A stretch of DNA of 64,000 nucleotides, taken from contig NW_027362761.1 in NCBI RefSeq assembly GCF_046119375.1, positions 941,222,001 to 941,286,000 of the forward strand, in the 5' to 3' direction. Every line of letters begins with the position of its first letter. Positions within the stretch are counted from its first letter, which is position 1. The notes under the pieces are model-generated. The model was given only the letters and a program-made list of their open reading frames with translations, did not search any database and was not told where the DNA came from. Position numbers and translations under genes: made by a program. This stretch comes from Phyllobates terribilis. Lineage: Eukaryota. This document shows positions 11,446 through 64,000 of the stretch, piece by piece.

Positions 11446-11864
11446 TAGAACAAAATAGTCACCATTAAACACTCTGAGTACTCTTATGAAAGTTAATATT
11501 AATGTGGAAGTGCTATAAATACATGTTGTTACCTAAGCCAATGTTGACCCATCAACTACACACTGCCTTGGAAGAAGCAATAAGCTCAGGTCACTTCTAC
11601 CCGGTAGTCTTGCTCCTCTGGGGATCACTGAGACAAACAAAGGGAGAAATACCTAGAGAAAAAAATAAAGAAAGACAGGAAACTATAACTTTTATAGGGA
11701 CTGATCATCTGACCATTAACATCCAAGACTAAGGGATAGCAGAGAGATTGTATGAAAAAAATTAAACAAAGGGGAGTTGAGCATCTGCATTCGACTGATG
11801 AAGCCATATACGTACTTGCAGTTTCAGCCAATAAAAATCAAAAGAAATAAATCTGACAGATAAC

Positions 11865-12286
11865 TGTTAGAACCTTGCTGTTAGTTTTTTTTTCCTTTGC
11901 TGGTCACATGACCTTGTTGGCCTATTTAATCCTGCTCCGCCCTTCTGGCTTTGCTGGACTTCATTGTATATCTACTTTCTAGCTAGCCTGTGCTCTGTAT
12001 CTATCTCTGTTAGTTTGCTTGGTCTACGGACCTCTATGTTCTATCTATTTTGTTTGTTCGTCTGTCTGCTACTATTTCTGTTAGGAGGTGTCCCATATTC
12101 CTTCCAGTCCTTAGTACTTGTAGGGATTCCCTCCCCACATCTATAGGTCTTCGTACAGACTAGATTAGGACTTTAGCAGGTCTGATCGCAGGATCAGGTT
12201 CCCTGTTACATCGTAGGGATTCAGCTGAGTCCTATAGTAGGGACAGATCTCCTCTCTTTCCTTAGCTTTGGTAGCAGAACATACCA
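11865..12286 (+). repeat. 5' LTR of element 1
   Basis: Direct repeat of 16418-16839. TATA-like TATTTAA at 11923-11929. Confidence 0.95.
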
Positions 12287-12297
12287 GTAAGTCCAGC
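12287..12297 (+). promoter_or_regulatory. Putative self-priming primer-binding site of element 1 (GTAAGTCCAGC)
   Basis: Directly follows the LTR and lacks the TGG tRNA-type start. Bases 12289-12297 are the exact reverse complement of LTR 11953-11961 (GCTGGACTT). Confidence 0.7.
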
Positions 12298-12337
12298 CTG
12301 CAAATTCTCTAAGGAAAGATTTTTTTTTTGTTCCATC

Positions 12338-15300
12338 ATGGTGTCGGTTCAGGATTTGGCTAAACACCTGCAGGGACTCTCTCTGGAAGTGGCCGAGCTC
12401 CGTCAGCACGTGAGTAACTGTCCTGGAGCACATTTCTTGGAGCCTAAGGTATGTTTGCCGGATTTATTTTTTGGTGAACACCGAGAATTTTTTTCATTTA
12501 AAAATGCTTGCTTATTGTATTTTCGTTTGAGACCTAAGTCCTCTGGGGATGAATCCCAGCGCGTAGGGTTCATAATGTCACTTTTGCGCAAAGAGCCTCA
12601 GGAGTGGGCCTTTTCTTTGCAACCTAGTGATTCATGCTTCAGATCAGTGGATAGTTTTTTTTCTGCTTTGGGACTATTATATGATGATCTTGACCGTGTC
12701 GCATCAGCTGAGACTGAGTTGAGACGTTTAAAACAAGGATCGGGTAATGTGGAAAAATATTGTACACATTTTCGTCGTTGGTCCACTCAAACAGGGTGGA
12801 ACGATTCTGCTCTGAAAAGTCTATTTCTTGCTGGGCTCAGTGAAAGGGTTAAAGACCTGCTAATTGCTTATCCTACACCTGAGGATTTGCAACAGGCTAT
12901 GCAATTAGCTATACGGGTGGATAGAAGACTGCGTGCTAGGGTTAATGAGAGCAAATCCTCTGCTATGTCAGTTTCTGGTTATGATAATGTGTGTATTAAC
13001 AGTGGTGAACCGATGGAGATTGGATCGGTGGCACCTCGCTCTCAAGAAAAAGACCGTCGTTTTTCGGAAGGCTTGTGCTTCTATTGCGGAAAATCTGGTC
13101 ATTTGATTAAAGGCTGTGAGCTTCGTATGAAGAAAGAAAAAAAAATGGTCAGTCACGCCCGTATTGCCTGTTTAAATTCCAAGGGTATATTTTTAGCTGC
13201 TTCCACGATTGCTCAGGAAAAATTGATGGAATTTCGGGTGTTTGTTGATTGCGGGTCTACACTGAATGTAATTGATGGGGGATTCGTGGAAAAACTCAAT
13301 TTAAAACCTGAACCTTTATCATCCCCCATTGCTGTGGTTTCTGTGGATGGCTCCCCTTTGAAGAATATTACTCTCAAGGTCAGTGAATTTCCTCTCACTA
13401 TTAATGGTGTTCACCATGAGAAATTGGATTTGGTAGTGTTGAATAACTTGCCTTCTCCAGTAATATTGGGTTTGCCCTGGTTAAAATTTCACAATCCTGT
13501 ACTGGATTGGTCTACCAGTGAAATTAAATCCTGGAGCCATAAATGTTATGACAAGTGTTGTAACGGGCGTATTGCAGCTTTGGATAGGGGAGAATTGCCT
13601 GTTCCTATTCAGGATTTTTGGAGAGTTTTTTCTGAGAAAGAATCGCAGGTTTTGCCTCCCCATAGAGACTATGATTGTTCTATTGAATTTGTCCCTGGAG
13701 CGACTCTTCCTAAGAGTCGTTTATTTAACCTTACTATTCCTGAGAGGAAGGCTTTGGAGGAATACATACAGACAAGCTTGGCCGCCGGTCACATTAGGCC
13801 CTCTAAGTCTCCTGTGGCGGTTGGATTTTTTTTTGTAAAAAAAAAGGACGGCGGTTTACGTCCTTGTCTGGATTTTCGTGAGATTAACAAAATTACGGTA
13901 CGCAATCCTTACCCACTGCCATTGATTCCTGATCTGTTTAACCAGTTATTGGGGGCCAAGTGGTTCTCTAAAATTGACCTTAAGGGGGCATACAATCTGT
14001 TGCGCATGAAGGAGGGTGATGAATGGAAGACTGCTTTTAACACTCCTGTGGGTCATTTTGAGAATCTGGTTATGCCTTTTGGTCTTACTAATGCTCCTGC
14101 ATTTTTTCAGAATCTGATTAATGACATCCTTAGACCTTTGATCGGTAAAAATGTGGTTGTGTATTTGGATGACATTTTGATTTATTCGCCAGATCTGGAG
14201 TCTCATTGGTGGAGCGTGCGTGAAGTATTACAGTTATTAATGGACAATTCGCTTTTTGCTAAGCTGGAGAAATGTGAGTTCGCTGTACAGAGAATTAGTT
14301 TTTTGGGCTACATTATCTCCAGCAAAGGTTTTGAGATGGATCCGGTTAAGGTTCAGGCTGTGCAGGAATGGCCTAGGCCTATTGGTTTGAAATCGATACA
14401 GAGGTTTTTGGGTTTCGCCAATTACTATAGAAAATTCATAAAACATTTTTCTAGTATTGTCAAACCTCTGACTGATCTCACCAGGAAAGGTGCTGATGCG
14501 GTTCAGTGGTCTTCTGAGGCCATTGAAGCTTTTGTGTATCTCAAGGAGAGGTTCACCTCTGCTCCCATCCTTATGCAGCCTGATGTTACTAGGCCGTTTT
14601 TGGTTGAGGTTGATGCTTCCTCTGTGGGGGTTGGCGCAGTATTGTCTCAGGATAACGGGGATGGATTACATCCCTGTGCCTTTTTTTCAAAAAAATTTTC
14701 GGAGACTGAATTGAATTACGATGTTGGTAATCGGGAATTATTGGCTATTAAACTCGCATTTGAACACTGGCGCCACTTCTTGGAAGGTGCGGAATTTCCC
14801 GTTCAGGTTCTTACGGATCATAAAAATCTGATATATCTTGATGCTGCCAAGCGCCTTAATGCCCGTCAGGCTAGGTGGGCACTGTTTTTCTCGCGGTTTA
14901 ATTTCTCCGTTACTTACATCCCTGGTACTAAGAATGTTAAGGCGGATGCCTTGTCTCGCAGTTTTTCTCCCATAGTCGGTGCTGAGAAAGAGGAAAACAT
15001 TTTACAAGAAGGTGTTGTGATAGCTGCTTTAGACTCCGTTTTGGAAGATGAGATTCTTAAAGCTCAGGAGAATGCCCCATCTAACACTCCTCATGGGAGG
15101 TTGTTTGTGCCTGGGACCTTTAGGAGAGATTTGTTTGTTGAGTGTCACGAATCTCGGTTGGCAGGTCATCCCGGAATCTCTGAGACCAAGAGACTGGTGG
15201 GTCGCAGTTTTTGGTGGCCTGGATGGCAGAAGGAAGTCATTAAGTGGGTGCGCCAATGTACTATATGTGCTAGATCTAAGTCCTCAGACACTCCTGCTGC

Positions 15301-16405
15301 GGGGTTGCTTTGTCCTTTGGAGGTCCCCAGTGCTCCTTGGACACATTTGGCTATGGACTTTATAACTGACCTTCCCCCCTCTGAGAGTTTTACTGTCATT
15401 TGGGTGGTCGTGGACCGTTTTAGCAAGATGTGTCACTTGGTTCCCTTCGTCAAACTGCCCTGCGCTAAAACTCTCGCTAAGACCTTTGTCAAAGAAATTG
15501 TCAGACTTCATGGCGTTCCTACTGACATTGTTTCTGATAGGGGTCCTCAGTTCGTGGCTCGTTTTTGGCGTGCCTTTTGTGACAGGTTGGGAATTCATTT
15601 GTCGTTTTCGTCCGGATATCATCCTGAATCTAATGGCCAGACAGAAAGGAAAAACCAGGATGTTGAGCAGTTCTTGCGTTGTTTTGTGGCAGACAATCAA
15701 GAGGGGTGGTCTGAGTTTCTGCCACTTGCCGAATTTGCTCTGAACAATCATACATCTTCTTCTGCTGGTTGTTCGCCTTTTTTTTGTTGTTCTGGGAGAC
15801 ATCCGTCGTTTGGGTCATTCTCCAAGTTGGGATCTGCCGTGCCTGAGGAGGAGAATTTTTCCGGTGATTTGGAAAGAGTTTGGACGGATGTGCGTGGTAA
15901 TCTTCAGGAGGCCAACAGAAAATCTAAAGACTACTTTGATAGGAAACGACAGGAGGTTTTGTTCGCTGTTGGTGACATGGTTTGGTTGTCCTCTAGGAAT
16001 CTGCGGTTGAGGATTCCTTCTAAGAAATTGGGTCCCAAGTTTGTAGGGCCCTTTAAGGTGCTTCAGGTTGTCAACCAATCTGCTGTTAGGTTGGAGGTTC
16101 CTACCTCCTGGAGAATTAATCCGGTCTTTCATGTCTCTCTGTTAAAAAAAGCTGTTGTGTCGGATGGTGACGCCTCTGCCTCTGTTCCTCCGGTGGTGGA
16201 GGACGGGGAATATGAAATTTCTCGCATCCTTGACTCTAGACGGTATAGAGGTAGTTTGCAGTATCTTGTGGCCTGGAAAGGTTTCGGACCCGAGGATAAC
16301 TCTTGGGTGAGGTCAGATGATGTTTCCGCGTCCAGACTTATCAGAGCGTTTCACAGGAGATTTCCTGATAAGCCTGGTCCTAGGGGATCCGGAGGATCCT
16401 CTTAG
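12338..16405 (+). CDS. Gag-Pol polyprotein, 1355 aa (capsid, CCHC knuckle, protease, RT, RNase H, integrase, chromodomain)
   Basis: CFYCGKSGHLIKGC zinc knuckle, FVDCGS protease, YLDD RT, VEVDAS and TDHKNL RNase H, HHCC plus D-D-E (GQTER) integrase, QYLVAWKGFGPEDNSW chromodomain. Confidence 0.95.
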   Translation: MVSVQDLAKHLQGLSLEVAELRQHVSNCPGAHFLEPKVCLPDLFFGEHREFFSFKNACLLYFRLRPKSSGDESQRVGFIMSLLRKEPQEWAFSLQPSDSCFRSVDSFFSALGLLYDDLDRVASAETELRRLKQGSGNVEKYCTHFRRWSTQTGWNDSALKSLFLAGLSERVKDLLIAYPTPEDLQQAMQLAIRVDRRLRARVNESKSSAMSVSGYDNVCINSGEPMEIGSVAPRSQEKDRRFSEGLCFYCGKSGHLIKGCELRMKKEKKMVSHARIACLNSKGIFLAASTIAQEKLMEFRVFVDCGSTLNVIDGGFVEKLNLKPEPLSSPIAVVSVDGSPLKNITLKVSEFPLTINGVHHEKLDLVVLNNLPSPVILGLPWLKFHNPVLDWSTSEIKSWSHKCYDKCCNGRIAALDRGELPVPIQDFWRVFSEKESQVLPPHRDYDCSIEFVPGATLPKSRLFNLTIPERKALEEYIQTSLAAGHIRPSKSPVAVGFFFVKKKDGGLRPCLDFREINKITVRNPYPLPLIPDLFNQLLGAKWFSKIDLKGAYNLLRMKEGDEWKTAFNTPVGHFENLVMPFGLTNAPAFFQNLINDILRPLIGKNVVVYLDDILIYSPDLESHWWSVREVLQLLMDNSLFAKLEKCEFAVQRISFLGYIISSKGFEMDPVKVQAVQEWPRPIGLKSIQRFLGFANYYRKFIKHFSSIVKPLTDLTRKGADAVQWSSEAIEAFVYLKERFTSAPILMQPDVTRPFLVEVDASSVGVGAVLSQDNGDGLHPCAFFSKKFSETELNYDVGNRELLAIKLAFEHWRHFLEGAEFPVQVLTDHKNLIYLDAAKRLNARQARWALFFSRFNFSVTYIPGTKNVKADALSRSFSPIVGAEKEENILQEGVVIAALDSVLEDEILKAQENAPSNTPHGRLFVPGTFRRDLFVECHESRLAGHPGISETKRLVGRSFWWPGWQKEVIKWVRQCTICARSKSSDTPAAGLLCPLEVPSAPWTHLAMDFITDLPPSESFTVIWVVVDRFSKMCHLVPFVKLPCAKTLAKTFVKEIVRLHGVPTDIVSDRGPQFVARFWRAFCDRLGIHLSFSSGYHPESNGQTERKNQDVEQFLRCFVADNQEGWSEFLPLAEFALNNHTSSSAGCSPFFCCSGRHPSFGSFSKLGSAVPEEENFSGDLERVWTDVRGNLQEANRKSKDYFDRKRQEVLFAVGDMVWLSSRNLRLRIPSKKLGPKFVGPFKVLQVVNQSAVRLEVPTSWRINPVFHVSLLKKAVVSDGDASASVPPVVEDGEYEISRILDSRRYRGSLQYLVAWKGFGPEDNSWVRSDDVSASRLIRAFHRRFPDKPGPRGSGGSS

Positions 16406-16417
16406 AAGGGGGGGTAC

Positions 16418-16839
16418 TGTTAGAACCTTGCTGTTAGGTTTTTTTTCCTTTGCTGGTCACATGACCTTGTTGGCCTATTTAATCCTGCTCCCCCCTTCTG
16501 GCTTTGCTGGACTTCATTGTATATCTACTTTCTAGCTAGCCTGTGCTCTGTATCTATCTCTGTTAGTTTGCTTGGTCTACGGACCTCTATGTTCTATCTA
16601 TTTTGTTTGTTCGTCTGTCTGCTAATATTTCTGTTAGGAGGTGTCCCATATTCCTTCCAGTCCTTAGTACTTGTAGGGATTCCCTCCCCACATCTATAGG
16701 TCTTCGTACAGACTAGATTAGGACTTTAGCAGGTCTGATCGCAGGATCAGGTTCCCTGTTACATCGTAGGGATTCAGCTGAGTCCTATAGTAGGGACAGA
16801 TCTCCTCTCTTTCCTTAGCTTTGGTAGCAGAACATAACA
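16418..16839 (+). repeat. 3' LTR of element 1
   Basis: Follows the PPT plus TAC. Near-identical to 11865-12286. Confidence 0.95.
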
Positions 16840-28920: not shown

Positions 28921-30057
28921 TTTTAAATGGAGTACAATATTTTCCATGTTCACGAGAAATGGCAGATATATGTGATATGTCTGAAAGAGAACCACGATTT
29001 TAAATAGCAGGCCTGTAATTTACTAATATTATTCTTCCCAGACGCCTAGTGTGAATAGCTTGAGCGACACACTGCAACAGAATGGAAATGAAAGAAATGG
29101 CTGACTTTGGAACAGTCTTATAGGTGATATGTCTAACAGAGAACCACGGTTTGAAATAGCAGGCCTGTAATTTACTAATATTATTGTACACAGAGACCTA
29201 GTGAAAGGGTGCAGAAGTTTGGATAGTCTAAATGGGAGCTCCTTGTTCCGAGGGCTTACTCAACTCACACTGGTGACATTTTCGGCAGACCCCTTTGACT
29301 TCTTGCCGCAGTTGGGGCCAATACACCAGCTGTTGTAACCACCTAAAGGTCTTCTCCACACCAAAGTGAGTACTTCTTCCATGAGCTTCCTGGGCAAGCT
29401 GTGTTACTAGCGCTTCTGGAACTACTACCTGCCAGGTAGCATCGAACTCTTGAGGTAGCTGAATTCTTTGGCACAGTACGCCATCCCTCAGGAAAAGCCT
29501 TTCCCACTGGTCTAGGATTTGTTGGGTAGTTGGGAGTGAAGCAGCCCTGGCCTCCTGGTTGGGTCTTTGACCCAGGGCGACCCATTCTCTCAGCTTTGCC
29601 AGTTCTGGGTCGGACTGTTGCAGATATATCCACTCGTCTCTTGAGCGGCCAGAATTTGAGTGGGCCTCGGCTACTCTCCGGACTCCTGGGCATCGACCAC
29701 AGCAGTGGCGAACTGGCTGGAATCTCGTCCCCTTCAAGCTCCTCATTTATGTCTCTCTTTGGCCCTGTCTGAGTGACCCAGGACAGGGCATCTGCATGAG
29801 TGTTCCTTGTGATCCACCACTGCTCTAGTGCACCCAGCTTTGCATTCTCTAAGTGGGCCAAAGGGTTGCTGTCTGTCCGCACTTGTACTTCTGACCCCAA
29901 CAAGTACTCCGCAAATTTCTCGGTCATGGCCCACACCAGTGGCAGTAGCTCCAGCTTGAACGAAATGTAGTTGTTCAAATTCTTTTCCATATCCCGGAGC
30001 GACCGGCTGGCAAACGCAATCACTTGCTCTTTTCCTCCTTGCATTTGAGCCAGCACT

Positions 30058-30688
30058 TGTCACGGGTGTGTTGCCACGAAGATCGTCACGAGTACACAGC
30101 CTGACTTCTCGCAGCTGACTTGTTGGTGCTTTGTGTTTCTCGGCAGTGAGGGAGTTAATTCTCTCTCTCTCTCTGGGCTAGATGAGGTCCAGCCTCGCCC
30201 AGCTGCAATCAAAACTTCTGTAGTGAGACTCCTTCATATACCTGCTGGTCTGTTTGGGAGGTGTCGGTGAAAGCATTTCATTCAGACTGACAGAGCGGAT
30301 CGTGGTGTTTGGAGTTGCTGAGGTAAGTGTATTTGGAAGTGTTTTTTCCCTTTCCTCGCTTTATCATTTATCTCCTTTCCCGTTGGTTTTCCCTCTGTTG
30401 TAGTTGAGTAGTTGTTTGTATGCAAGGTGGTTTTGGTTTTTCCCTTGTACTGTCTCGTTCGTCCAATTACTGTGTTTGGGCATATTATTTCTTGTTCCCT
30501 TTGGTTGTGATCGGGGTCCTTCTCAGGACTAGATTACTGAGGTGCAGGGATCTTCAGGAGGTAGGGGTTACGCTGGCGGCCTGGACCTCTGTACCTTTAA
30601 CAGTACCTCCAGGTTGAGGGATTAGTCAGGGCCCCAGCTTAGGGTCAGCGTAGGCCCCCTACCTCCAGTATACAGAGACAGCGTGACA
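30058..30688 (+). repeat. 5' LTR of element 2
   Basis: Direct repeat of 34847-35477. Differences are A30213/T35002 and G30323/A35112. Confidence 0.96.
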
Positions 30689-30699
30689 TTTTCACCGAC
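30689..30699 (+). promoter_or_regulatory. Putative self-priming primer-binding site of element 2 (TTTTCACCGAC)
   Basis: Complementary to LTR 30263-30273 (GTCGGTGAAAG) with 10 Watson-Crick pairs and 1 G-U pair. No TGG tRNA-type start. Confidence 0.8.
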
Positions 30700-30723
30700 C
30701 CACTTAGTTTTTCTCCAGCTACT

Positions 30724-31563
30724 ATGGATCCAGTAGCCGGTCTAGCTCGGCAATTGCAGGGTTTGTCCATGGAGCTGGCGGACGTTAGGTCCAAGGTTTG
30801 GCATCCTCAGGAGCAAGCCGGACCAGAACCTAAAGTAGCTCTCCCTGATAGGTTCACTGGGGGGCGGGACAAGTTTTTTGTTTTCCGGGAGGCATGTAAA
30901 TTGTACTTTCAGCTGCGGCCTCGGTCATCGGGGAGTGAAGAACAAAGGGTGGGAATTGTCATCTCGCTCCTACAAGGGGACCCACAATCTTGGGCGTTCT
31001 CTCTTCCCCCGGGTTCCCCGGCTCTCCAGTCAGTGGATAGGTTTTTCGCTGCCCTGGGACTCGTATATGATGACCCAGATCGGATCTCCCTTGCTGAGTC
31101 TAAGTTACGTAGGATCCAGCAGGGAGATCGTCCGGCGGAGGAATTCTGTTCGGAGTTCCGTAGGTGGGCCACGGACACCCAGTGGAATGACCCGGCTCTT
31201 AGGAGCCAGTTTTGTCATGGTTTATCCGACAAATTACAGGATGTGTTGGCACAGTATGACTCTCCCGTGTCTCTGGAAGCCGCTATGGCCCTCGCTATTC
31301 GCGTGGACAGACGGCTTCGGGAGAGGTGCGGGATAACTCTACCCCCTGTGATGACTCCACCTCCTACAAGGTCCCCTCATATGGTGGTTCCCCTGGTCAG
31401 TCCAGAGGAGCCTATGCAATTAGGAGGGACATCATTTCGGGGGAGGGGACCGGTGGTGCGCCATAAGGCAGGAAGGTGTTTCTTCTGCGGGAGAAAGGGA
31501 CATTTTATTGGGGGGTGTCCATCCCGTCCCTTGCAGAGTGAAGAGTCGTCGGAAAACTGTTGA
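30724..31563 (+). CDS. Gag, 279 aa (retrotransposon capsid plus CCHC knuckle)
   Basis: EPKVALPDRFTG..LYFQLRP capsid, EPMQLG motif, CFFCGRKGHFIGGC knuckle. Confidence 0.93.
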   Translation: MDPVAGLARQLQGLSMELADVRSKVWHPQEQAGPEPKVALPDRFTGGRDKFFVFREACKLYFQLRPRSSGSEEQRVGIVISLLQGDPQSWAFSLPPGSPALQSVDRFFAALGLVYDDPDRISLAESKLRRIQQGDRPAEEFCSEFRRWATDTQWNDPALRSQFCHGLSDKLQDVLAQYDSPVSLEAAMALAIRVDRRLRERCGITLPPVMTPPPTRSPHMVVPLVSPEEPMQLGGTSFRGRGPVVRHKAGRCFFCGRKGHFIGGCPSRPLQSEESSENC

Positions 31564-31610
31564 TCCCAGGTTGTGTGGTGGACGGCAATCTGGGAGTAGG
31601 TATTTCGTCC
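31551..31610 (+). promoter_or_regulatory. Putative -1 ribosomal frameshift signal (G_GAA_AAC plus H-type pseudoknot)
   Basis: Heptamer in gag phase, 6-nt spacer, stem 1 31564-31573/31586-31595, stem 2 31580-31585/31605-31610. Confidence 0.7.
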
Positions 31611-34600
31611 CTAGGTTCGTCTCAGTTTCTCGTACCGGCGAAGGTGGTGGTGGGTACGAGAACTGAGAGGATATCTGTTCTTCTGGATAGTGGGGCCGGG
31701 GCTAATCTGGTTGATGCTCGGTTTGCCCGGGTTCAAGGTATGCGGTTGAGTGAGTTGGCTAAACCCATCCCCATATTCTCGATCGATGCCAGGCCTCTCG
31801 GGCAGGGAAGTTTTTTGCAAGTTGTGCATGACGTAAAACTTCAAGTGGGGGCAATACATAAAGAACTGTTGTCTTGCTACGTGTTGGAGGGTCTTCCCAC
31901 TCCTATTGTGTTGGGCCTTCCTTGGTTAGCTAAGCATAACCCGGTTATTAATTGGCAAACCAGGGAGATAAGCCAATGGAGTAAATTCTGTAATAAAAAC
32001 TGCATGAACACGGTCATTGGTGCGGTTACTCCTTGGGTCTTACCTCCATTTCTGGCGGACTTTGAGGATGTATTCTCGGAGAAAGGGTGTCAGGAACTAC
32101 CTCCTCATCGCGTGTATGACTGTTCTGTAAAACTGCTTCCTGAGGCCAAGTTACCTAAAGCTAGGTTGTATAACCTTTCTGGTCCTGAGAGGCAGGCCAT
32201 GAAGGATTATATCTCAGAAAGTCTGGCTAAGGGGCATATTAGACCTTCATCTTCACCGGTGGCTGCGGGGTTCTTCTTTGTTAAGAAGAAAGATGGAGGC
32301 CTACGCCCTTGCCTGGATTTCCGTGAACTTAATCGGATTACGGTCCGAGATCCGTATCCGCTCCCACTTATTCCCGATCTCTTTAATCAGATCGTGGGCG
32401 CCAAATGGTTTTCTAAGTTGGATCTCAGGGGGGCGTACAATCTGATTAGGATGAAGGAGGGGGATGAGTGGAAGACGGCGTTTAACACTCCGGAGGGGCA
32501 TTATGAGAACCTTGTCATGCCATTTGGTCTGACTAATGCCCCGGCGGTGTTCCAACACTTTGTTAATGACATTTTTCGCCGCTTGGTGGGACAGTTTGTT
32601 GTCATATATCTGGATGATATCCTAATTTACTCGCCGGATCTGGTGTCTCATCAGGAGCACGTTAGGCAGGTGTTACAGATCTTGCGGGATAATAAACTGT
32701 ATGCCAAGTGGGAAAAGTGTGTGTTCGTCGTACAGGAACTCCAGTTTTTAGGCTTCCTGGTTTCAGCGTCCGGTTTTCGTATGGACCCTGGGAAAGTGCG
32801 GGCAGTTCTTGAGTGGGATCGGCCAGAGAATCTTAAGGCACTACAACGTTTCCTGGGGTTTGCTAATTATTACCGGAAGTTCATTCGTAATTTCTCGTCC
32901 ATGGTTAAGCCTCTCACTGACATGACTAAAAAGGGGACGGATTTTTCTAGGTGGTCTGACAAGGCTTGTCAAGCATTCTCCTCTTTGAAAAAATGTTTTG
33001 CCTCGGCGCCCATACTCATTCAACCTGATGCGTCTCAGCCATTCATTGTAGAGGTAGACGCTTCCGAGGTAGGGGTGGGAGCAGTATTGTCACAGGGTTC
33101 GTCCCCTGGTAAGTGGCATCCGTGCGCCTTTTTCTCTAAAAAATTGTCGTCCGCTGAGAGGAATTACGATGTCGGCAATAGGGAACTCTTGGCCATTAAG
33201 TTAGCTTTTGAGGAGTGGCGCCATTTTCTGGAGGGGGCTGTTCATCCGGTCACCGTCATCACCGATCACAAGAACCTGCTATATCTGGAGTCCGCGAAAC
33301 GTCTGAATCCCAGACAAGCTAGGTGGTCATTGTTTTTTACCAGGTTTAATTTTGTCGTTACATATCGTCCTGGGTCAAAAAATGTAAAGGCGGATGCCTT
33401 ATCTCGTAGTTTCCCGGGGGCCGGGAATACGGACGACCCGATTCCTATCCTTCAGGAGGGGGTGGTGGTTTCGGCAGTATGCTCTGAGCTGGAGGAGGAG
33501 GTATTGGAGGCTCAGGGGGACGCCCCTGTTGGACCTCCAGGGAGATTGTTTGTTCCAGATCAGTTGCAACAAAAGGTGATCGAGGCACACCATAACTCAG
33601 TTTTTGCAGGACACCCGGGGAGTAAAGCTACTGTGGATCTCCTCTCGCGTCGGTTTTGGTGGCCTAATTTACATAAGGAGGTGGTAACTTTTGTCGCGTC
33701 CTGTGGGGTTTGTGCGCGCTCTAAGACCTCACATACCCGTCCGTCTGGGGCCCTCTTACCTTTGAAGATCCCGGAGCGTCCTTGGACTCATCTGTCTATG
33801 GACTTTATTACGGACCTCCCTCCGTCTTCGGGTAAAACGGTCATACTCGTTGTAGTGGACAGGTTCAGCAAGATGGCACATTTTATCGCTCTTCCGTCTC
33901 TCCCTAATGCTAAAACTCTTGCGCAGGTGTTCATTGGGGAGATTGTGAGGCTTCACGGGGTACCCTCCGAGGTGGTGTCTGATCGGGGGTCTCAGTTTGT
34001 GTCTAAGTTCTGGAAGGCGTTTTGTGCACGGCGGGGGATGCAGTTGTCATTCTCATCGGCTTTTCATCCTCAGACCAATGGTCAGACGTATCTCCGGTGT
34101 TTTGTGTCAGAGAACCAGGAGGACTGGGCTTCTTTCTTACCTCTGGCAGAGTTTGCTCTTAATAATAGGCGGAGCGAGTCCACTGGTAAGTCCCCGTTTT
34201 TTGGGGCATATGGTTTTCACCCCCAGTTTTGTACTTTCAGTGGGGGGGGCTCTTCGGGGGTTCCTGAGGAGGAACGATTTTCCTCATCACTCGCTTCAGT
34301 ATGGAGAGGGGTGCTGAAGAATCTGAATACTATGGGGAACCGATACAAACGTATGGCTGATAGGAGGAGAGTGTCTGGTCCGGACCTAAGTGTGAACGAT
34401 CGGGTATGGTTGTCTACCAGGAATATTAAACTTAAGGTTCCCTCCTGGAAACTGGGTCCCAGGTTCATCGGGCCGTACAGAATCAGTTCTATTATTAATC
34501 CGGTGGCATTCCGTCTTGACCTCCCCCCTACGTTTAAAATTCACAACGTGTTTCACAGATCATTGCTTAAGAGGTATGTGGCGCCGGTGGTACCGTCACT

Positions 34601-34907
34601 TTTACCTCCCCCTCCAGTGGTTGTCAATGGTAACTTGGAGTTCCAGGTATCGAGGGTCATTGATTCACGCTTTAATCGCCGGTCCCTTCAGTACCTGGTT
34701 CATTGGAAGGGGTATGGTCCTGAGGAGAGGATGTGGGTTCCTGCGTCGGATATTAACGCAGACCGATTAGTTCGGGCCTTCCACACGACTCACCCGGATA
34801 AACCTGGCCCTGAGGGTCCGGAGGCCCCTCGTAGAAGGGGGGGTACTGTCACGGGTGTGTTGCCACGAAGATCGTCACGAGTACACAGCCTGACTTCTCG
34901 CAGCTGA
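31551..34907 (+). CDS. Pol (PR-RT-RH-INT-chromodomain), in -1 frame relative to gag; integrase has an in-frame deletion
   Basis: LLDSGA protease, YLDD RT, TDHKNL RNase H, integrase and QYLVHWKGYGPEERMW chromodomain. The annotated 31560 start is a TTG, so a -1 frameshift at 31551-31557 is the more likely entry. Confidence 0.9.
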   Translation, partial: GKLLIPGCVVDGNLGVGISSLGSSQFLVPAKVVVGTRTERISVLLDSGAGANLVDARFARVQGMRLSELAKPIPIFSIDARPLGQGSFLQVVHDVKLQVGAIHKELLSCYVLEGLPTPIVLGLPWLAKHNPVINWQTREISQWSKFCNKNCMNTVIGAVTPWVLPPFLADFEDVFSEKGCQELPPHRVYDCSVKLLPEAKLPKARLYNLSGPERQAMKDYISESLAKGHIRPSSSPVAAGFFFVKKKDGGLRPCLDFRELNRITVRDPYPLPLIPDLFNQIVGAKWFSKLDLRGAYNLIRMKEGDEWKTAFNTPEGHYENLVMPFGLTNAPAVFQHFVNDIFRRLVGQFVVIYLDDILIYSPDLVSHQEHVRQVLQILRDNKLYAKWEKCVFVVQELQFLGFLVSASGFRMDPGKVRAVLEWDRPENLKALQRFLGFANYYRKFIRNFSSMVKPLTDMTKKGTDFSRWSDKACQAFSSLKKCFASAPILIQPDASQPFIVEVDASEVGVGAVLSQGSSPGKWHPCAFFSKKLSSAERNYDVGNRELLAIKLAFEEWRHFLEGAVHPVTVITDHKNLLYLESAKRLNPRQARWSLFFTRFNFVVTYRPGSKNVKADALSRSFPGAGNTDDPIPILQEGVVVSAVCSELEEEVLEAQGDAPVGPPGRLFVPDQLQQKVIEAHHNSVFAGHPGSKATVDLLSRRFWWPNLHKEVVTFVASCGVCARSKTSHTRPSGALLPLKIPERPWTHLSMDFITDLPPSSGKTVILVVVDRFSKMAHFIALPSLPNAKTLAQVFIGEIVRLHGVPSEVVSDRGSQFVSKFWKAFCARRGMQLSFSSAFHPQTNGQTYLRCFVSENQEDWASFLPLAEFALNNRRSESTGKSPFFGAYGFHPQFCTFSGGGSSGVPEEERFSSSLASVWRGVLKNLNTMGNRYKRMADRRRVSGPDLSVNDRVWLSTRNIKLKVPSWKLGPRFIGPYRISSIINPVAFRLDLPPTFKIHNVFHRSLLKRYVAPVVPSLLPPPPVVVNGNLEFQVSRVIDSRFNRRSLQYLVHWKGYGPEERMWVPASDINADRLVRAFHTTHPDKPGPEGPEAPRRRGGTVTGVLPRRSSRVHSLTSRS

Positions 34908-35477
34908 CTTGTTGGTGCTTTGTGTTTCTCGGCAGTGAGGGAGTTAATTCTCTCTCTCTCTCTGGGCTAGATGAGGTCCAGCCTCGCCCAGCTGCAATCA
35001 ATACTTCTGTAGTGAGACTCCTTCATATACCTGCTGGTCTGTTTGGGAGGTGTCGGTGAAAGCATTTCATTCAGACTGACAGAGCGGATCGTGGTGTTTG
35101 GAGTTGCTGAGATAAGTGTATTTGGAAGTGTTTTTTCCCTTTCCTCGCTTTATCATTTATCTCCTTTCCCGTTGGTTTTCCCTCTGTTGTAGTTGAGTAG
35201 TTGTTTGTATGCAAGGTGGTTTTGGTTTTTCCCTTGTACTGTCTCGTTCGTCCAATTACTGTGTTTGGGCATATTATTTCTTGTTCCCTTTGGTTGTGAT
35301 CGGGGTCCTTCTCAGGACTAGATTACTGAGGTGCAGGGATCTTCAGGAGGTAGGGGTTACGCTGGCGGCCTGGACCTCTGTACCTTTAACAGTACCTCCA
35401 GGTTGAGGGATTAGTCAGGGCCCCAGCTTAGGGTCAGCGTAGGCCCCCTACCTCCAGTATACAGAGACAGCGTGACA
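34847..35477 (+). repeat. 3' LTR of element 2
   Basis: Follows the PPT plus TAC. Near-identical to 30058-30688. Confidence 0.96.
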
Positions 35478-38433
35478 GCACTGCACCCAGTCCATGCAAG
35501 CTTCCGTGAGTGTACAACACGAGAGGCTGTGATAAATCAGCGTAATCCAGAATTGGGGCATCCGTTAGCGCCATTTTCTATGCTCGGAATGCCTCTTCTT
35601 GTCGTGGGCCCCACTGAATGGGCTGCCGCTTTGCTCCCCCAGACATTGCTCTCAGTACTCATGGAGCGGGACTGCAATCTTAGCGAAGTCTTTTATGAAT
35701 CTGCGGTAGTATTCAGCAAGCCCGAGGAATGCCCTCAATTCTCTTAGGTTGGCAGGTGTGGGCCACTTCTGCACTGCAGCTACTTTCTCCTCAGTGGGAT
35801 GGACTTCCACACTAGACACAGTGTGCCCCAGATATTCAATTTCCCACTTGAAGAGATGACACTTACGAGGCTTGATTTTTAGTCCATGTCTCTGAAGTCA
35901 TTCTAACACTTGCTCCATTCAGTGGAGATGATCTTCAAACGTAGCGGAATAGATAATTATATCGTCAAGATATATTAAAGTGGCTTCGAAGTTGAGGCTC
36001 CCCAAGCATCTCTCCATCAGTCTTTGGAAGGTCCCTGGTGCATTTGTTAGACCGAACGGCATCCGGGTTGAACTCAAACAAGCCCATAGGAAGGACAAAA
36101 ACTGTCTTCGGACGATCCTTCTCAGATACTGGGACCTGCCAGTAGCCACTTGCCAGGTTGAGAGAAGAGAAGAACTTGGTGCTTCCTAGTGCAGATAGAG
36201 ACTCTTCAATTCGGGGTAGTGGATAGGAGTCCCGCACTGTACATGCATTCAGCTTCTGATAGTCTACACAAAACCCCAGGGTACCATCCTTCTTCCGAAC
36301 CAGCATGATAGGGGCAACCCAAGGACTCTGACTTTTGCGGATCACGCCATTCCGCAACATGTGGGTCAACAGTTCTTTCACCTCCTGGTACATTTGAGGT
36401 GAGATCTGTCAATATCTCTCTTGAAAGGGAGCAGTATTTCCTGTGGGTATTTCATGCCGAATGTCCCGAGTGCACCTTAAATCATCTTCATGGTGTGCAA
36501 ATACTCCCTGATACCGCTGTAGAAGTTGTTTGCTCTGTCTGACCTGCCCTGCAGAAAACTCAGTAAGGTTAGCCTCCATTTGCTCTAAGAGGTGGCGCCC
36601 AGCCAACGGTTCTCTTCCATTCTCTTGGCTGTTGAGGGACACCTCTGGGGTCCATGGTTCTCCTTCCACAGGTGCCAGCCATATAGCGTCAGCTCTGTTA
36701 AGATCCTCTGGCATTATGCAAACTAGCACCACCTCTTGTCGGGGCAACAACTGCAAACTTGTGCCAATTAGATTGATGCAATGCACAGGCACCTGGCCCT
36801 GCCACACGTTTGCCAGGGTGCGAGCAACCAGAAGTCCGGAGGGTGCTTCCTCTCCCTATATTGGTTCAATCTGAATGTCCACACCCTCTAAGGACACACG
36901 TGCCTGTACCGGTAAAGTGAGTACAGTCTGTCCCACTGGCAGTGTCACTGTGGCTTCAGGCGGTATCGATACCTTACCAAGATACTGAGAGGTAGTGGGC
37001 AATTTTTGAATTTTGCTGACTCGCATGAGATGCTGGAATACTCTCTTGCTGGCTGGGTCACGATTGGCGCGGGTCCAGTTGTTTTTGTCAGAGCCCTCAG
37101 CCAGGAACTGTCCGACCTCCTTCAGCACATTCATGCCCAGGGTTACGATGGGCCCGTCGCCTCCAGGCCCTGTGGTCAGTACGATCCCTTTCGGACTGAG
37201 GTCTTTTGCGCATGCCCGAACAGACATCCATACTACCCCAGCTACTGGGATAGGTAGTTGATTAGCCGCCACCAGTTTGACAGTGGGTTCCCTCCAGGAA
37301 CGAACAACTTCAGGAAACTTACTTTGGAAATACGTCTCAGGCATAGTGGTCACCTGAGACCCGGTGTCCATTAGACAACGAACCCGCTGCCCATTAAATT
37401 TAGCCCAGATGATGAGCCTCTCAGAGACAATGTCTTCAGAGCTCCCTCTTCCACTCTCCGAAGTTTGAAACCCCACGGTATGCTCCACAACCGTGGGGTG
37501 CCTTAGTTTAACGGCTGCCCCCATCTCCTCCTTTCTCGGTTCGGACAGTCTTTGGATATATGCCCCCTACCGCCGCAGTTCCACCACTCCGGCCCTCGCT
37601 CCACCGATAGGCCAGGTACATGACGTGTTGGAGCTTGCTATGAACGTCTCTCGCTCTGGCCTCCGTCCACGTGGGGTGGTGCGGTCCATCGGCAAGGGGG
37701 CAGAAGGGATATTCCTAATAGTGCTCAGCTCACCTCAAATATCTTGAATTTCCTGACATATCTTCCGTGCCCATTTGGGCTCTTTTATGGGTGAATTCAG
37801 GAATAGTTACTTCATGGCTTCTGACTGTGGCCTTGAAAACAGGAACTTCTTATTCCAGGACTCTAGCTTCAGCCCCAACCTCCAGAAAGCCCAGATCTGG
37901 ACTCAAAAGCAGCCGCTCCTTTAAGATCTGCCTCAGGGAAGGGTCCTTCAAGCCAGCAATCAGTTAATCATGCAACACTTCATCCAATAGTCCCAGTCCT
38001 CGGTTCTCATCTCGAGCCTTCTTAACTATATGGGCCGCCACTTCCTGTAATGCATTAACATATTGGTTCATGGTCTCATTTTTCCCTTGGACCTGCTGAA
38101 ATAACCACAGGCGCAAGTGCCCCAGATCCGTGGAGTCACCATGCATGTCCTCCAGAATTTTTATCACTTTGTCTATGGTGTCACGGTCCCCAGGTGGGAG
38201 GTACATCACAGTTTGCCGGGTCTCTCCATCAAGGGTTAGGAGGGCCAGCTCCGCCTGGGATAGGGAATTAAAGGGATACATGCATAGCACACTTCTCAGT
38301 CTTTCTACCCAGTCCCACAGTGACATGACATCCCCATGAACTTGGGAAGGTGGCTGAGCATAGCCCCAAGGGAATGTGTCCCCTGTCGGCCCCAGTCACA
38401 GACTGATCCGCCATCTCTGCATCTGAATGTTGC

Positions 38434-54181: not shown

Positions 54182-56638
54182 TACATAGTTTATAAGGCCG
54201 AAAAAAGACAAGAGTCCATCCAGTTCAGCCTATTTCTTGTGCACTGCAGCTATTCCGCAGCGTTGATCCAGGGGAAGGCAAAAAAAAAAAACATGCGGTA
54301 TAGGCCAATTTACATCATTGAGGAAAAATTCACTTCCCGACTCCAATCTGGCAGTCAGATTAAATCCCTGGGTTAATTAACTATCACTAAGCATAAGATG
54401 TAATTTTATTGTTCTCAAGAAAAGCGTCCAGGCCTCTCTTGAACTCAATAAGTGAGTTGGACATCACCACTTCCTCTCCCAGAGAGTTCCAGAGTCTCAC
54501 GGCTCTGACCGTAAAGAATCCCCTTCTATGCTGGTGCAGGAACCTCCTTTCCTCCAGACGCATAGTGTGCCCCCTCGTCTTTGTCACCATCCTTGGTATA
54601 AACAGGTCATGGGAGAGATCTCTGTACTGCCCCCTGATGTATTTATACATGTTTATGAGGTCTCCCCTAAGCCTTCTCTTTTCCAACGTAAATAGGCCTA
54701 ATTTTGACAACCTCTCTGGGTATTCTAGTCCCTCCATTCCCTTTATTACCTTAGTCGCCCTTCTTTGTACCCTCTCTAGCTCCAATATGTCTTTCCTGAG
54801 CACCGGAGCCCAGAACTGTGCACAATATTCTAAGTGCGGCCTTACCAGCGCTTTATACAGAGTAAGAACAATGTTCTCATCATATGCCCCTATTCCTCTT
54901 CTGATGCATGCCATGACTCTATTTGTCTTCGCAGCTGCTGCCTGACACTGGGCACTCCAATTTAATTTGCTGTTAACCAAGATGCCCAGGTCCTTCTCCA
55001 TGTCAGATTTCCCCAACGGTTTCCCATTTAATATGTATGGGTGACTGCTGTTTTTCTTTCCCATGTGCATGACCTTACATTTATCGGCATTGAACCCCAT
55101 TTGCCATTTTTTGGCCCAACTCCTCAATTTATCTAAATCCTCCTGTAGCTGTGCCCTATCCTCATCTGTATTAACTACTTTACAAAGTTTAGTATCATCT
55201 GCAAATATTGCTATTTTACTATGAAACCCTTCCACTAGATCATTAATAAATATATTAAATAATATAGGGCCCAAGACAGACCCTTGAGGCACCCCGCTAG
55301 TAACCCCGACACACCCTGAGCTTACTCCATTGATAACCACCCTCTGCTTTCTATCACTCAGCCAGCTATTTACCCACTTGCACACATTATCCCCCAGACC
55401 AAGCATTCTCATTTTATATACCAACCTTTTGTGTGGCACGGTATCAAACGCTTTGGAGAAGTCAAGGTATACAACATCCACTGACTCTCCCCGGTCCAGC
55501 TGTGAGCTCACCTCCTCGTAGAAGGCGATCAGGTTTGTTTGGCAGGAGCGATCCCTCATGAATCCATGTTGATATGGAGTTAGACAGTTATTATCATTAA
55601 GATATTCTACAATAGCATCTCTAAGAAATCCTTCAAACAATTTACCCACAACAGACGTTAAGCTTACTGGTCTATAGTTCCCAGGGTCACTTTTAGACCC
55701 CTTTTTGAATATTGGTACCACATTTGCTTGGCGCCAGTCTAGTGGGACAGTCCCTGTCCATAAAGAGTGCTTGAATATAAGATACAGTGGTCTGTCTATC
55801 ACATTACTTAATTCTTTTAGTACCCGGGGGTGTATGCCATCTGGGCCTGGTGGCTTGTCTATTTTGATATTATTTAGGCGTTTCTGAACTTCCTCCTGGG
55901 TTAGGTGGGTGATATTTAGCGGAGGGTTTACTTTATCACTCTGCATTTCCTCCGATAAATTGTTTTCTTTTGTGAAAACAGTGGAGAAGAAGCTATTGAG
56001 TAGGTTTGCTTTACCCTCATCGCCCTCTATGATTTTACCCAGGTTATTTTTCAATGGGCCAACTCCATCAGTTTTAATCCTGTTACTGTTTATATAGTTA
56101 AAGAACAGTTTGGGATTCATTTTACTTTCCTTGGCAATTAGTCTCTCTGTCTCATCTTTTGCTATTCTTATTTGTTTCTTACAGATTTTGTTTTTTTCCC
56201 TATAAGATATTAGCGCTTCCTCACTGCCTTCTTGTTTAAGTTTACCGAAAGCCCTTTTTTTGTTTTTCATTGCCCTCTTGACTTCCTTATTTAGCCACAT
56301 TGGCTTCCTCCTATTCCTAGCCCTTTTATTCCCATAAGGTATGTACCTTCTACAGTGACTATGTAGGACTGTTTTGAAAATTTCCCATTTTCTATCCGTG
56401 CTCCTATTACTGAAGATACTATCCCAGTCTATAAGGTGAAGGGCATCTCTTAGCTGATCAAACTTTGCCCTCCTGAAGTTCAGTGTTTTTGTGACTCCCT
56501 TGCTGGGCACCCTACTGAAGCACATGTGGAATTGTATAATGTTGTGGTCACTATTTCCCAGGTGCCCCCGACCTGCACCCCAGTTATTCTGTCTGGCCTG
56601 TTAGTTAATATTAAGTCTAAAAGGGCCTTTTCTTTGAT
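54182..56638 (-). mobile_element. CR1 LINE copy B, 5'-truncated (about 2.45 kb)
   Basis: Begins in the endonuclease C-terminus (ALLDLILTNRPD..GNSDHN) and continues through RT, 3' UTR and an AACTATGTAA tail. Possible short TSD TTAT. Confidence 0.95.
54387..56525 (-). CDS. CR1 ORF2 remnant, uninterrupted 712-aa reverse transcriptase region
   Basis: YRPVSLTS, QHGF, YLDFSKAFD, GVPQGSVLGP and FADD motifs. The 5' part of ORF2 is missing, so it is not autonomous. Confidence 0.9.
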   Translation of the reverse strand: MCFSRVPSKGVTKTLNFRRAKFDQLRDALHLIDWDSIFSNRSTDRKWEIFKTVLHSHCRRYIPYGNKRARNRRKPMWLNKEVKRAMKNKKRAFGKLKQEGSEEALISYREKNKICKKQIRIAKDETERLIAKESKMNPKLFFNYINSNRIKTDGVGPLKNNLGKIIEGDEGKANLLNSFFSTVFTKENNLSEEMQSDKVNPPLNITHLTQEEVQKRLNNIKIDKPPGPDGIHPRVLKELSNVIDRPLYLIFKHSLWTGTVPLDWRQANVVPIFKKGSKSDPGNYRPVSLTSVVGKLFEGFLRDAIVEYLNDNNCLTPYQHGFMRDRSCQTNLIAFYEEVSSQLDRGESVDVVYLDFSKAFDTVPHKRLVYKMRMLGLGDNVCKWVNSWLSDRKQRVVINGVSSGCVGVTSGVPQGSVLGPILFNIFINDLVEGFHSKIAIFADDTKLCKVVNTDEDRAQLQEDLDKLRSWAKKWQMGFNADKCKVMHMGKKNSSHPYILNGKPLGKSDMEKDLGILVNSKLNWSAQCQAAAAKTNRVMACIRRGIGAYDENIVLTLYKALVRPHLEYCAQFWAPVLRKDILELERVQRRATKVIKGMEGLEYPERLSKLGLFTLEKRRLRGDLINMYKYIRGQYRDLSHDLFIPRMVTKTRGHTMRLEERRFLHQHRRGFFTVRAVRLWNSLGEEVVMSNSLIEFKRGLDAFLENNKITSYA

Positions 56639-62478: not shown

Positions 62479-64000
62479 TTAGAGTGCGTTCGGAGGAAGA
62501 CCTCGTCGGTCATCATCCGCAAGCACTTCAGCTGCCTCCCCTTGCCTGGATAACCCATCTGCTTTACCGTGGGCCCGGCCGGACTTATACCGAACATCAA
62601 AGTTGTAGTGTTGGAGAGCTAGGCTCCAACGCAACAACCTTCCGTTCTCACTGGCTACTCGAGATAGCCAAGTGAGGGGGTTGTGGTCCGTCACCACAGT
62701 GAAATGGCGCCCGTAGACGTATGGCTGCAGATGCTGCAGAGCCCACACGATCGCCAGGCATTCCTTCTCCACCGTAGAGCAGGCCACTTCCCTCGGCAGA
62801 AGTTTCCGACTGAGGTATTGAACAGGGTGCTCTTGACCTGCTGAGTCAGGTTGGCTCAGCACCGCACCAAGTCCGTAGGTGCTGGCGTCAGTCTGTACTA
62901 CTAGCGGCCGGGAGTCGTAGTACGCCTGGAGTACAGGGGCTGCCACCAGGGCAGCTTTCAAGGCCTGGAAGGAGCGCTCACAGTCCGCTGTCCAGTTGAT
63001 AGCTTGCAGCAGCTTCTTCTTGGTGAGGTCTGTCAGGGGCTTGGCCAGGGCACTATAGTCCTGTACGAACTTCCTATAGTACCCGGCCATACCCAAGAAA
63101 GACATCACCTGTTTCTTGGTCCTTGGGGTGGGCCAGGTCGTGATTGCATCCACCTTCCCAGATTCTGGTCTCAGTTTCCCCCCACCTACCCGGTGTCCAA
63201 GGTATTGGACCTCGGTCATGCCCATCTGACACTTTCTCGGCTTGATGGTCAAGCCTGCCCGGTGGATCCGCCCCAGCACCTCTGACAGGTGCCGAAGGTG
63301 TTCCTCCCAAGTGGGGCTGATGACGGCAATGTCATCCAGGTACGCAGCTGCGAACCCTTCGCACCCTGACAGCAAGGTGTTGACCATCCGCTGGAAAGTG
63401 GCGGGGGCATTCTTCATGCCAAATGGCATGACGGTGGGCTCATACAGTCCAAAAGGAGTGATAAAGGCTGATTTCTCCTGTGCCTCTGGGGACAGGGGAA
63501 TCTGCCAGCAAGCATCCTCGGCTCAAGTCCATGATGGTCAAGTACTGAGCCTTGCCCAACCGGTCAAGCAGGTTGTCGATGCGCGGCATGGGGAACGCGT
63601 CATCGGCGGTAATGGCATTGAGCCCCCTGTAATCCACACAGAACCGGGTCGTCCGGTCCTTTTTGGGTACGAGGACTACAGATGAGGCCCATGCGCTGGT
63701 GGACGGGCGGATCACCCCCAGCTCCAGCATCTCGGCAATCTTCTTCCGCATTTGCTCCTGTACCTCCAAGGAGACGCGATATGCCGTTCGCCGGATAGGG
63801 GCGTCATTCCCCGTGTCCACTCGGTGGACTACCAGCTTTGTCCGCCCGGGCTTTCCTGAGAGGAGGCCAGGGAAAGGGCGCATAACCTCCTTCAGCTGGG
63901 ACCGTTGGTCCTCAGACAGAAGGATGTTCATGGGGGCATCCTCCATGGACCCTCCCGCACGGGCATGTGCGAGCAGATCCATGAGGTCCTCCTCCTCCCC
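62479..64000 (-). pseudogene. Pol RT-RNase H with one frameshift (about 63507-63514)
   Basis: RFCVDYR, MPFGMKNAPATFQR, AYLDD, QTDAS, TDHNPL and ADGLSR motifs. The expected GYWQIP appears as GGA TGC TTGC TGG CAG ATT CCC, a 4-bp insertion. Confidence 0.88.

Follow-up and report, generated by a model that had tools for sequence, protein, structure and literature searches.

Pairing of the primer-binding site with the predicted RNA 5' end suggests Tf1-type self-priming in an abundant Ty3/gypsy chromovirus of Phyllobates terribilis

The stretch of DNA analyzed in this study (the window) comprises 64,000 nucleotides of the genome of Phyllobates terribilis and contains, among other retroelement sequences, two LTR retrotransposons, element 1 and element 2, the second of which is the main subject here. 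Element 2 lies on the plus strand and is flanked on both sides by the target site duplication (TSD) GCACT (no strand assigned; left copy 30053-30057, right copy 35478-35482). Its 631-nt 5' LTR (30058-30688) has the ends TGTCACG...CGTGACA, which match the Sushi LTR-end motifs TGTYANR and CNTNACA listed in Table 3 of PMC3601003 (available in part), and differs from the 3' LTR (34847-35477) at two positions over 631 nt. The 5' LTR is followed by the primer-binding site (PBS, 30689-30699), by gag (30724-31563), which encodes a Retrotrans_gag domain and a CCHC knuckle, and by pol (31542-34846), which encodes protease, reverse transcriptase (RT), RNase H, integrase, SH3_Tf2-1 and a chromodomain. Relative to gag, which it overlaps, pol lies in the -1 frame, and the sequence GGAAAAC occurs at 31551; this arrangement of the reading frames suggests -1 gag-pol frameshifting. 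A polypurine tract (PPT) and then TAC (34830-34846) are located directly 5' of the 3' LTR.

The TG...CA termini of the LTRs, the TSD and the domain order protease-RT-RNase H-integrase, together with a chromodomain at the integrase C-terminus (PF00385, 6.6e-13; PF24626, 1.3e-19), identify element 2, as judged from its sequence, as a young Ty3/gypsy chromovirus, and Ty3 Gag-Pol was its best match in the PDB. Compared with four out of four sibling copies, the integrase core has a 27-nt in-frame gap near 34084-34089, which from the motif context presumably removes a catalytic residue; therefore, this copy is probably integrase-dead, even though its LTRs have hardly diverged. The 5' LTR also carries a private A-to-G change at 30323, which creates GTAAGT, a perfect look-alike of a splice donor that is absent from the 3' LTR, the other 29 of 29 copies having A at this position.

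Pattern searches of the host genome (10.6 Gb) found 18,894 matches to the PPT-LTR junction common to elements 1 and 2. The LTR-PBS junction pattern of element 2's family (family B) and its sister family B' gave 6,515 matches versus 32 for the control, with the B' pattern alone accounting for 689 of the 6,515. Element 2's kind is very abundant in this genome.

Element 2 has inserted into a Ty3/gypsy element that is older, broken and located on the minus strand (29228-30057 and 35478-37566), and of which an RNase H fragment remains on the left and the protease on the right. Element 1 (11864-16839) is a chromovirus of family A with a single 1376-aa frame and 422-nt LTRs. It has a 9-bp complement located 30 nt behind TATTTAAT, the same self-pairing signature as in element 2 but in different letters, and an 11-bp stem between U5 and leader closes its PBS loop (3 of 150 shuffles, tested on a sibling copy). 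The window also contains, both on the minus strand, a 737-aa frame with RVT_1 only (54387-56600) and a Ty3/gypsy RT-RNase H fragment (62479-63522).

Immediately downstream of its 5' LTR, element 2 has the 11-nt sequence TTTTCACCGAC (30689-30699), in which the TGG of a tRNA-type PBS is absent. Comparison of the reverse complement of TTTTCACCGAC with GTCGGTGAAAG at 30263-30273, the predicted RNA 5' end and self-primer, showed a difference in the last base only, so that the two sites can form 10 Watson-Crick pairs and a terminal G-U pair. The complement is contiguous, the duplex cannot be extended 5' of 30263 by a single base, and the two strands are separated by a loop of 415 nt (30274-30688). 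Each of these properties had been put forward in the preliminary description and was borne out by the base-by-base comparison, as was the distance of 28 nt between the TATA-like hexamer CATATA (30235-30240) and 30263, with the qualification that the hexamer itself is not conserved in the family. A splice-built primer need not be invoked, given the contiguous complement and the restriction of GTAAGT at 30323 to the 5' LTR of this copy. The PBS-LTR duplex is part of the minimum-energy fold, and in the predicted ensemble the pairs 1 to 8 have probabilities of 0.96-1.0, followed by 0.65, 0.44 and 0.12 for pairs 9, 10 and 11, respectively. The conserved core on the LTR side is the 9 nt at 30263-30271. 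The primer window had two changes in 50 LTRs, a level of conservation equaled by 43 of 621 windows.

The position of the complement relative to the promoter was similar among the family representatives. In eight out of eight family representatives the PBS paired with the element's own LTR, and the complement began with a G after a T, with a TATA-like word at -28 to -32 by a word pattern that was set after the sequences had been viewed. Families B' and C have canonical TATA boxes at the corresponding position. In family B, the box in 27 copies was CATATAC in eight, TTTATATT in five, CATATTC in one and CAAAT(G/A)C in 13, suggesting that the TATA of element 2's family is weak. The TATA spacing and the T-G step point to 30263 as the putative RNA start of element 2.

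The 30 closest copies of element 2 were invariant at both duplex sites and hence uninformative on covariation. Therefore, the sampling was widened, in each case blind to the PBS, to 100 PPT matches (the first ones on contig 1) and to another 100 places selected because their LTR starts differed, which together with both window elements gave 202 candidates. LTR boundaries were accepted for 113 candidates, and 89 were dropped for want of a clear LTR pair. The longest Watson-Crick run between PBS and LTR was at least 9 in 98 of the 113 elements, compared with 2 of 113 for a mock PBS taken from the flank beyond the 3' LTR, although 91 of the 113 elements belong to families A (63) and B (28) and the run counts are thus not independent. 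The 15 elements with a run below 9 included cases of boundary errors, single changes and deletions as well as four old elements; in the latter (L167, L190, L209 and L225) no convincing LTR site for the PBS was found. In a swap matrix of eight representatives, each PBS formed 9-10 pairs with the LTR of its own element, whereas the maximum with a foreign LTR was 8, except for families A and A2, which have a common PBS.

Priming by a full-length tRNA is excluded by the lack of TGG, which was absent from the 8 nt following the LTR in all but one of the 113 elements (112 of 113), the exception being an internally deleted copy. Eukaryotic tRNA genes do not encode CCA.

The sampled loci also included head-to-tail tandem family A elements with a common LTR (L048/L049, L107-L109 and L111/L112), the dinucleotide context of the shared LTR being that of the PPT junction. 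At L084, a family A LTR fragment directly follows an apparent clade C LTR end and may represent a chimera. L132, L134 and L135 represent an abundant family with internal regions of 1.8-2.7 kb that contain clade C-like gag pieces and little or no pol, and this family is probably non-autonomous.

In order to look for compensatory changes, diverged relatives of element 2 were compared. In the sister family B', 11 of 18 loci had a site 364-396 nt ahead of the PBS, six of which align to 30263, while no homologous site was found at the other seven loci. Compared with B, all 11 B' sites have A-T instead of T-A at PBS +3, and nine of the 11 have G-C instead of A-T at +10 (one G-U and one mismatch in the remaining two), with the B' sites having been chosen by best complementarity, which biases these counts towards pairing. 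The core was perfect in only three of the 11 B' sites, and most of the remaining sites differed by a single CpG change. For clade C, an upstream anchor independent of the PBS served to locate the PBS partner; this gave 42 rows, 10 of which had no anchor and 31 of which were unique. Among the 31, Watson-Crick pairs were found in 30 at +7 (17 A-T and 13 T-A) and in 26 at +9 (16 G-C and 10 A-T). In total, 84 of 93 cells were paired versus 58.7 +/- 4.0 after shuffling, and none of 20,000 shuffles was as good, a figure that is not to be read as a probability because the covarying copies are related. On a tree built from copies of this genome only, the covarying changes correspond to about two events within clade C and about two more that separate B from B'.

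Compensatory changes at four positions in diverged relatives thus indicate that the pairing is selected. Covariation, proposed in the preliminary description as a check on the pairing, was found with the diverged relatives B' and clade C, and each PBS fits its own LTR only. The idea that the complementarity arose by chance, or as a by-product of local duplication or inversion, can draw on the two control flanks that also had a 9-bp run. However, a perfect 10-mer complement occurred in only seven of 20,000 dinucleotide-shuffled LTRs of element 2 (33 of 20,000 for the 9-mer core), and both its fixed position and the compensatory changes argue against such an origin, which is refuted by the covariation provided that the alignments are correct and to which we assign a negligible probability.

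Additional helices are predicted around the duplex. The LTR segment 30296-30330 is a candidate 5' arm that pairs with the leader (30700-30731), covers the gag AUG (-28.1 kcal/mol; two of 150 shuffles as good) and may correspond to a duplex of the 'pretzel', a three-duplex structure that Tf1 needs according to the available portion of bioRxiv 2022.12.06.519325. Downstream in the LTR, an inverted repeat of 11 nt (30557-30567 and 30656-30666) is predicted to close a U5 hairpin (30557-30666). The flanking helix showed no covariation within family B (8,448 of 20,000 shuffles). A significant leader helix was found in only four of 13 representatives, at differing places, and no flanking helix conserved across families was found.

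The helix over the gag AUG, together with the fact that cleavage and priming are deductions here, could be taken to favor an alternative in which the duplex is real but structural only, serving packaging, dimerization or translation control, while a tRNA fragment or another small RNA primes reverse transcription. Against it, there are at least seven distinct PBS sequences, each of which is matched by the LTR of its own element, and an outside primer would therefore need to change in step; moreover, the location of the duplex is exactly that of the PBS, its end coincides with the predicted start, and an Rfam search of the PBS-LTR region gave no match to any family. We regard a purely structural duplex as quite improbable.

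The duplex, its rarity by chance, the compensatory changes and the fixed promoter geometry together make Tf1-type self-priming likely. It is considered highly probable that element 2 primes reverse transcription with its own RNA start in the manner of Tf1, most likely with a primer of 9 nt on PBS +3 to +11. According to this mechanism, Pol II would start the transcript at G30263, the RNA 5' end would fold onto the PBS across the 415-nt loop, and the RNase H of the element's own RT, a domain that is present in pol, would cleave the RNA 3' of the paired bases, and the resulting short 5' fragment would prime minus-strand DNA. With a primer of most likely 9 nt (10 being possible in element 2's family) paired to PBS +3 to +11, the cDNA would bear about two extra bases beyond the terminal CA for trimming by integrase, and the candidate helix that covers the gag AUG may contribute to keeping the PBS open.

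The primer length was examined by comparison of the paired positions among families. Positions +3 to +11 of the PBS (30691-30699 in element 2) were paired in every family, and in C the first G extends the pairing by one position (+3 to +12). Position +2 was paired in B, B' and E, unpaired in A and D, and variable in C. Position +1 was unpaired in A, D and E, paired in one of 31 C copies and Watson-Crick paired in none of 11 B' copies. In seven of nine representatives, the dinucleotide that follows the 5' LTR is the reverse complement of the one that precedes the 3' LTR, the exceptions being B and B'; element 2 has TT after the LTR and AC before the 3' LTR. In the light of retroviral and Ty3 cDNA ends, the mirrored nucleotides suggest a 2-base overhang that is trimmed by integrase and therefore a 9-nt primer, or possibly 10 nt in B. 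Since element 2's family lacks the mirror and pairs at +2, it could use a primer of 10 or 11 nt.

A primer exactly as in Tf1, 11 nt long and abutting the LTR end, would be in keeping with the ability of all 11 positions to pair in element 2's family, with the pairing of +2 in B, B' and E, and with the invariance of the LTR-site positions +10 and +11 in 50 of 50 LTRs, an observation that is not specific to such a primer because +12 is equally invariant. The low predicted probability of the 11th pair, a G-U, the unpaired +1 in A, C, D, E and B', and a deletion junction at L110 that resumes at +10 speak against it, and we consider the 11-nt primer unlikely. The proposal of Tf1-like self-priming in the preliminary description is thus supported by the covariation and by the fit of each PBS to its own LTR, whereas the length of 11 nt given there is probably too long, the conserved duplex being +3 to +11. 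A primer of 9-10 nt, with spacer bases left for integrase trimming, is probably to be inferred from the comparison.

L110 (G000:C1:20540576-20548593) has one 159-nt deletion in both LTRs, the sequence resuming at +10, directly behind the 9-mer, with 3-nt microhomology. The junction provides an indirect hint of RNase H cleavage that would release the primer. It is likely the trace of a mis-jump of strong-stop DNA and is consistent with a missing 9-nt primer, although the junction is also compatible with a primer of 10, 11 or 12 nt and is a single event, among four copies with shared deletions, that was sought after having been predicted. Among matches short of the upstream part of the reference, no +10 junctions were found beyond the two LTRs of L110; the five other partial matches start at -41, -1, +30, +45 and +45, and 278 matches were full length. 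In a different locus, L119 (G000:C1:21836973-21844990), both LTRs are 238 nt long and have a common 390-nt deletion (+18 to +407), which leaves the primer site about 25 nt from the PBS.

A more general proposal can be advanced tentatively, at somewhat less than even probability: vertebrate sushi elements may have a variant of Tf1 self-priming with a 9-nt, sometimes 10-nt, G-initiated primer located 2 nt off the LTR, may form retrovirus-like symmetric cDNA overhangs that integrase would trim, and may have the cut site recorded in genomic copies by mis-jumped strong-stop DNA, as at +10 in L110. If this is true, genomic sequence by itself would suffice to map the site of cleavage, since the family comprises thousands of young copies.

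Self-priming has been shown for Tf1/Tf2 of Schizosaccharomyces pombe and proposed for Tj1 of S. japonicus (PMC7175516, PMC4600332 and PMC5341516, each available in part). The accessible text of PMC7175516 states that the first 11 bases of Tf1 pair with the PBS and that RNase H cuts between bases 11 and 12. Element 2 resembles Tf1/Tf2 and Tj1 in being a Ty3/gypsy chromovirus with a chromodomain and in having a PBS that lacks TGG and is complementary to the predicted RNA 5' end. In contrast to the 11 pairs of Tf1, the families compared here have a conserved 9-bp duplex located 2 nt off the LTR end. Furthermore, CCHC is missing from the elements of fission yeast and Tf1 consists of one ORF, as stated in the available part of bioRxiv 2022.12.06.519325, whereas the Gag of element 2 contains CCHC and its pol overlaps gag in the -1 frame, the layout of Tf1/sushi elements outside fission yeast.

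The vertebrate Tf1/sushi elements, which are the V-clade of GyDB (sushi-ichi and Amn-ichi/ni/san), share with element 2 a vertebrate host, the chromodomain, CCHC, the -1 frameshift layout, Sushi-type LTR ends and predicted self-priming, according to the accessible parts of PMC6317226 and bioRxiv 2022.12.06.519325. Element 2 also shows the features of the group at its PBS, which is not of the tRNA type and is complementary to its own LTR behind the promoter. By sequence it represents, as far as tested, a new family of the Tf1/sushi group. Self-priming has likewise been predicted for plant Tcn1-clade chromoviruses and for TAR copia, which differ in having plant hosts and, for TAR, in belonging to Ty1/copia (PMC6317226, in the part available); the methods of that paper define self-priming by at least 10 complementary bases beginning 0-5 nt after the LTR.

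Self-priming has been described before for the Tf1/sushi group, including its vertebrate members. The available portions of PMC6317226, bioRxiv 2022.12.06.519325 and PMC4600332, citing Butler et al. 2001, describe it as a common feature of the group from fungi to vertebrates, with self-priming of the vertebrate members given as a proposal. Primer lengths for sushi elements may already be given in a figure of the bioRxiv preprint and in Butler 2001. The excerpts of PMC5341516, PMC5006619 and PMC7472051 added nothing on vertebrates, and no experimental test of self-priming in a vertebrate was found in the literature searched, which covered few of the primary papers.

In conclusion, these results leave what is known of the group unchanged, and they add to it covariation, a common promoter geometry and a hint of a primer shorter than that of Tf1. 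With this comparative support and the very high copy number of the elements, the genome of P. terribilis is a good test system for self-priming.
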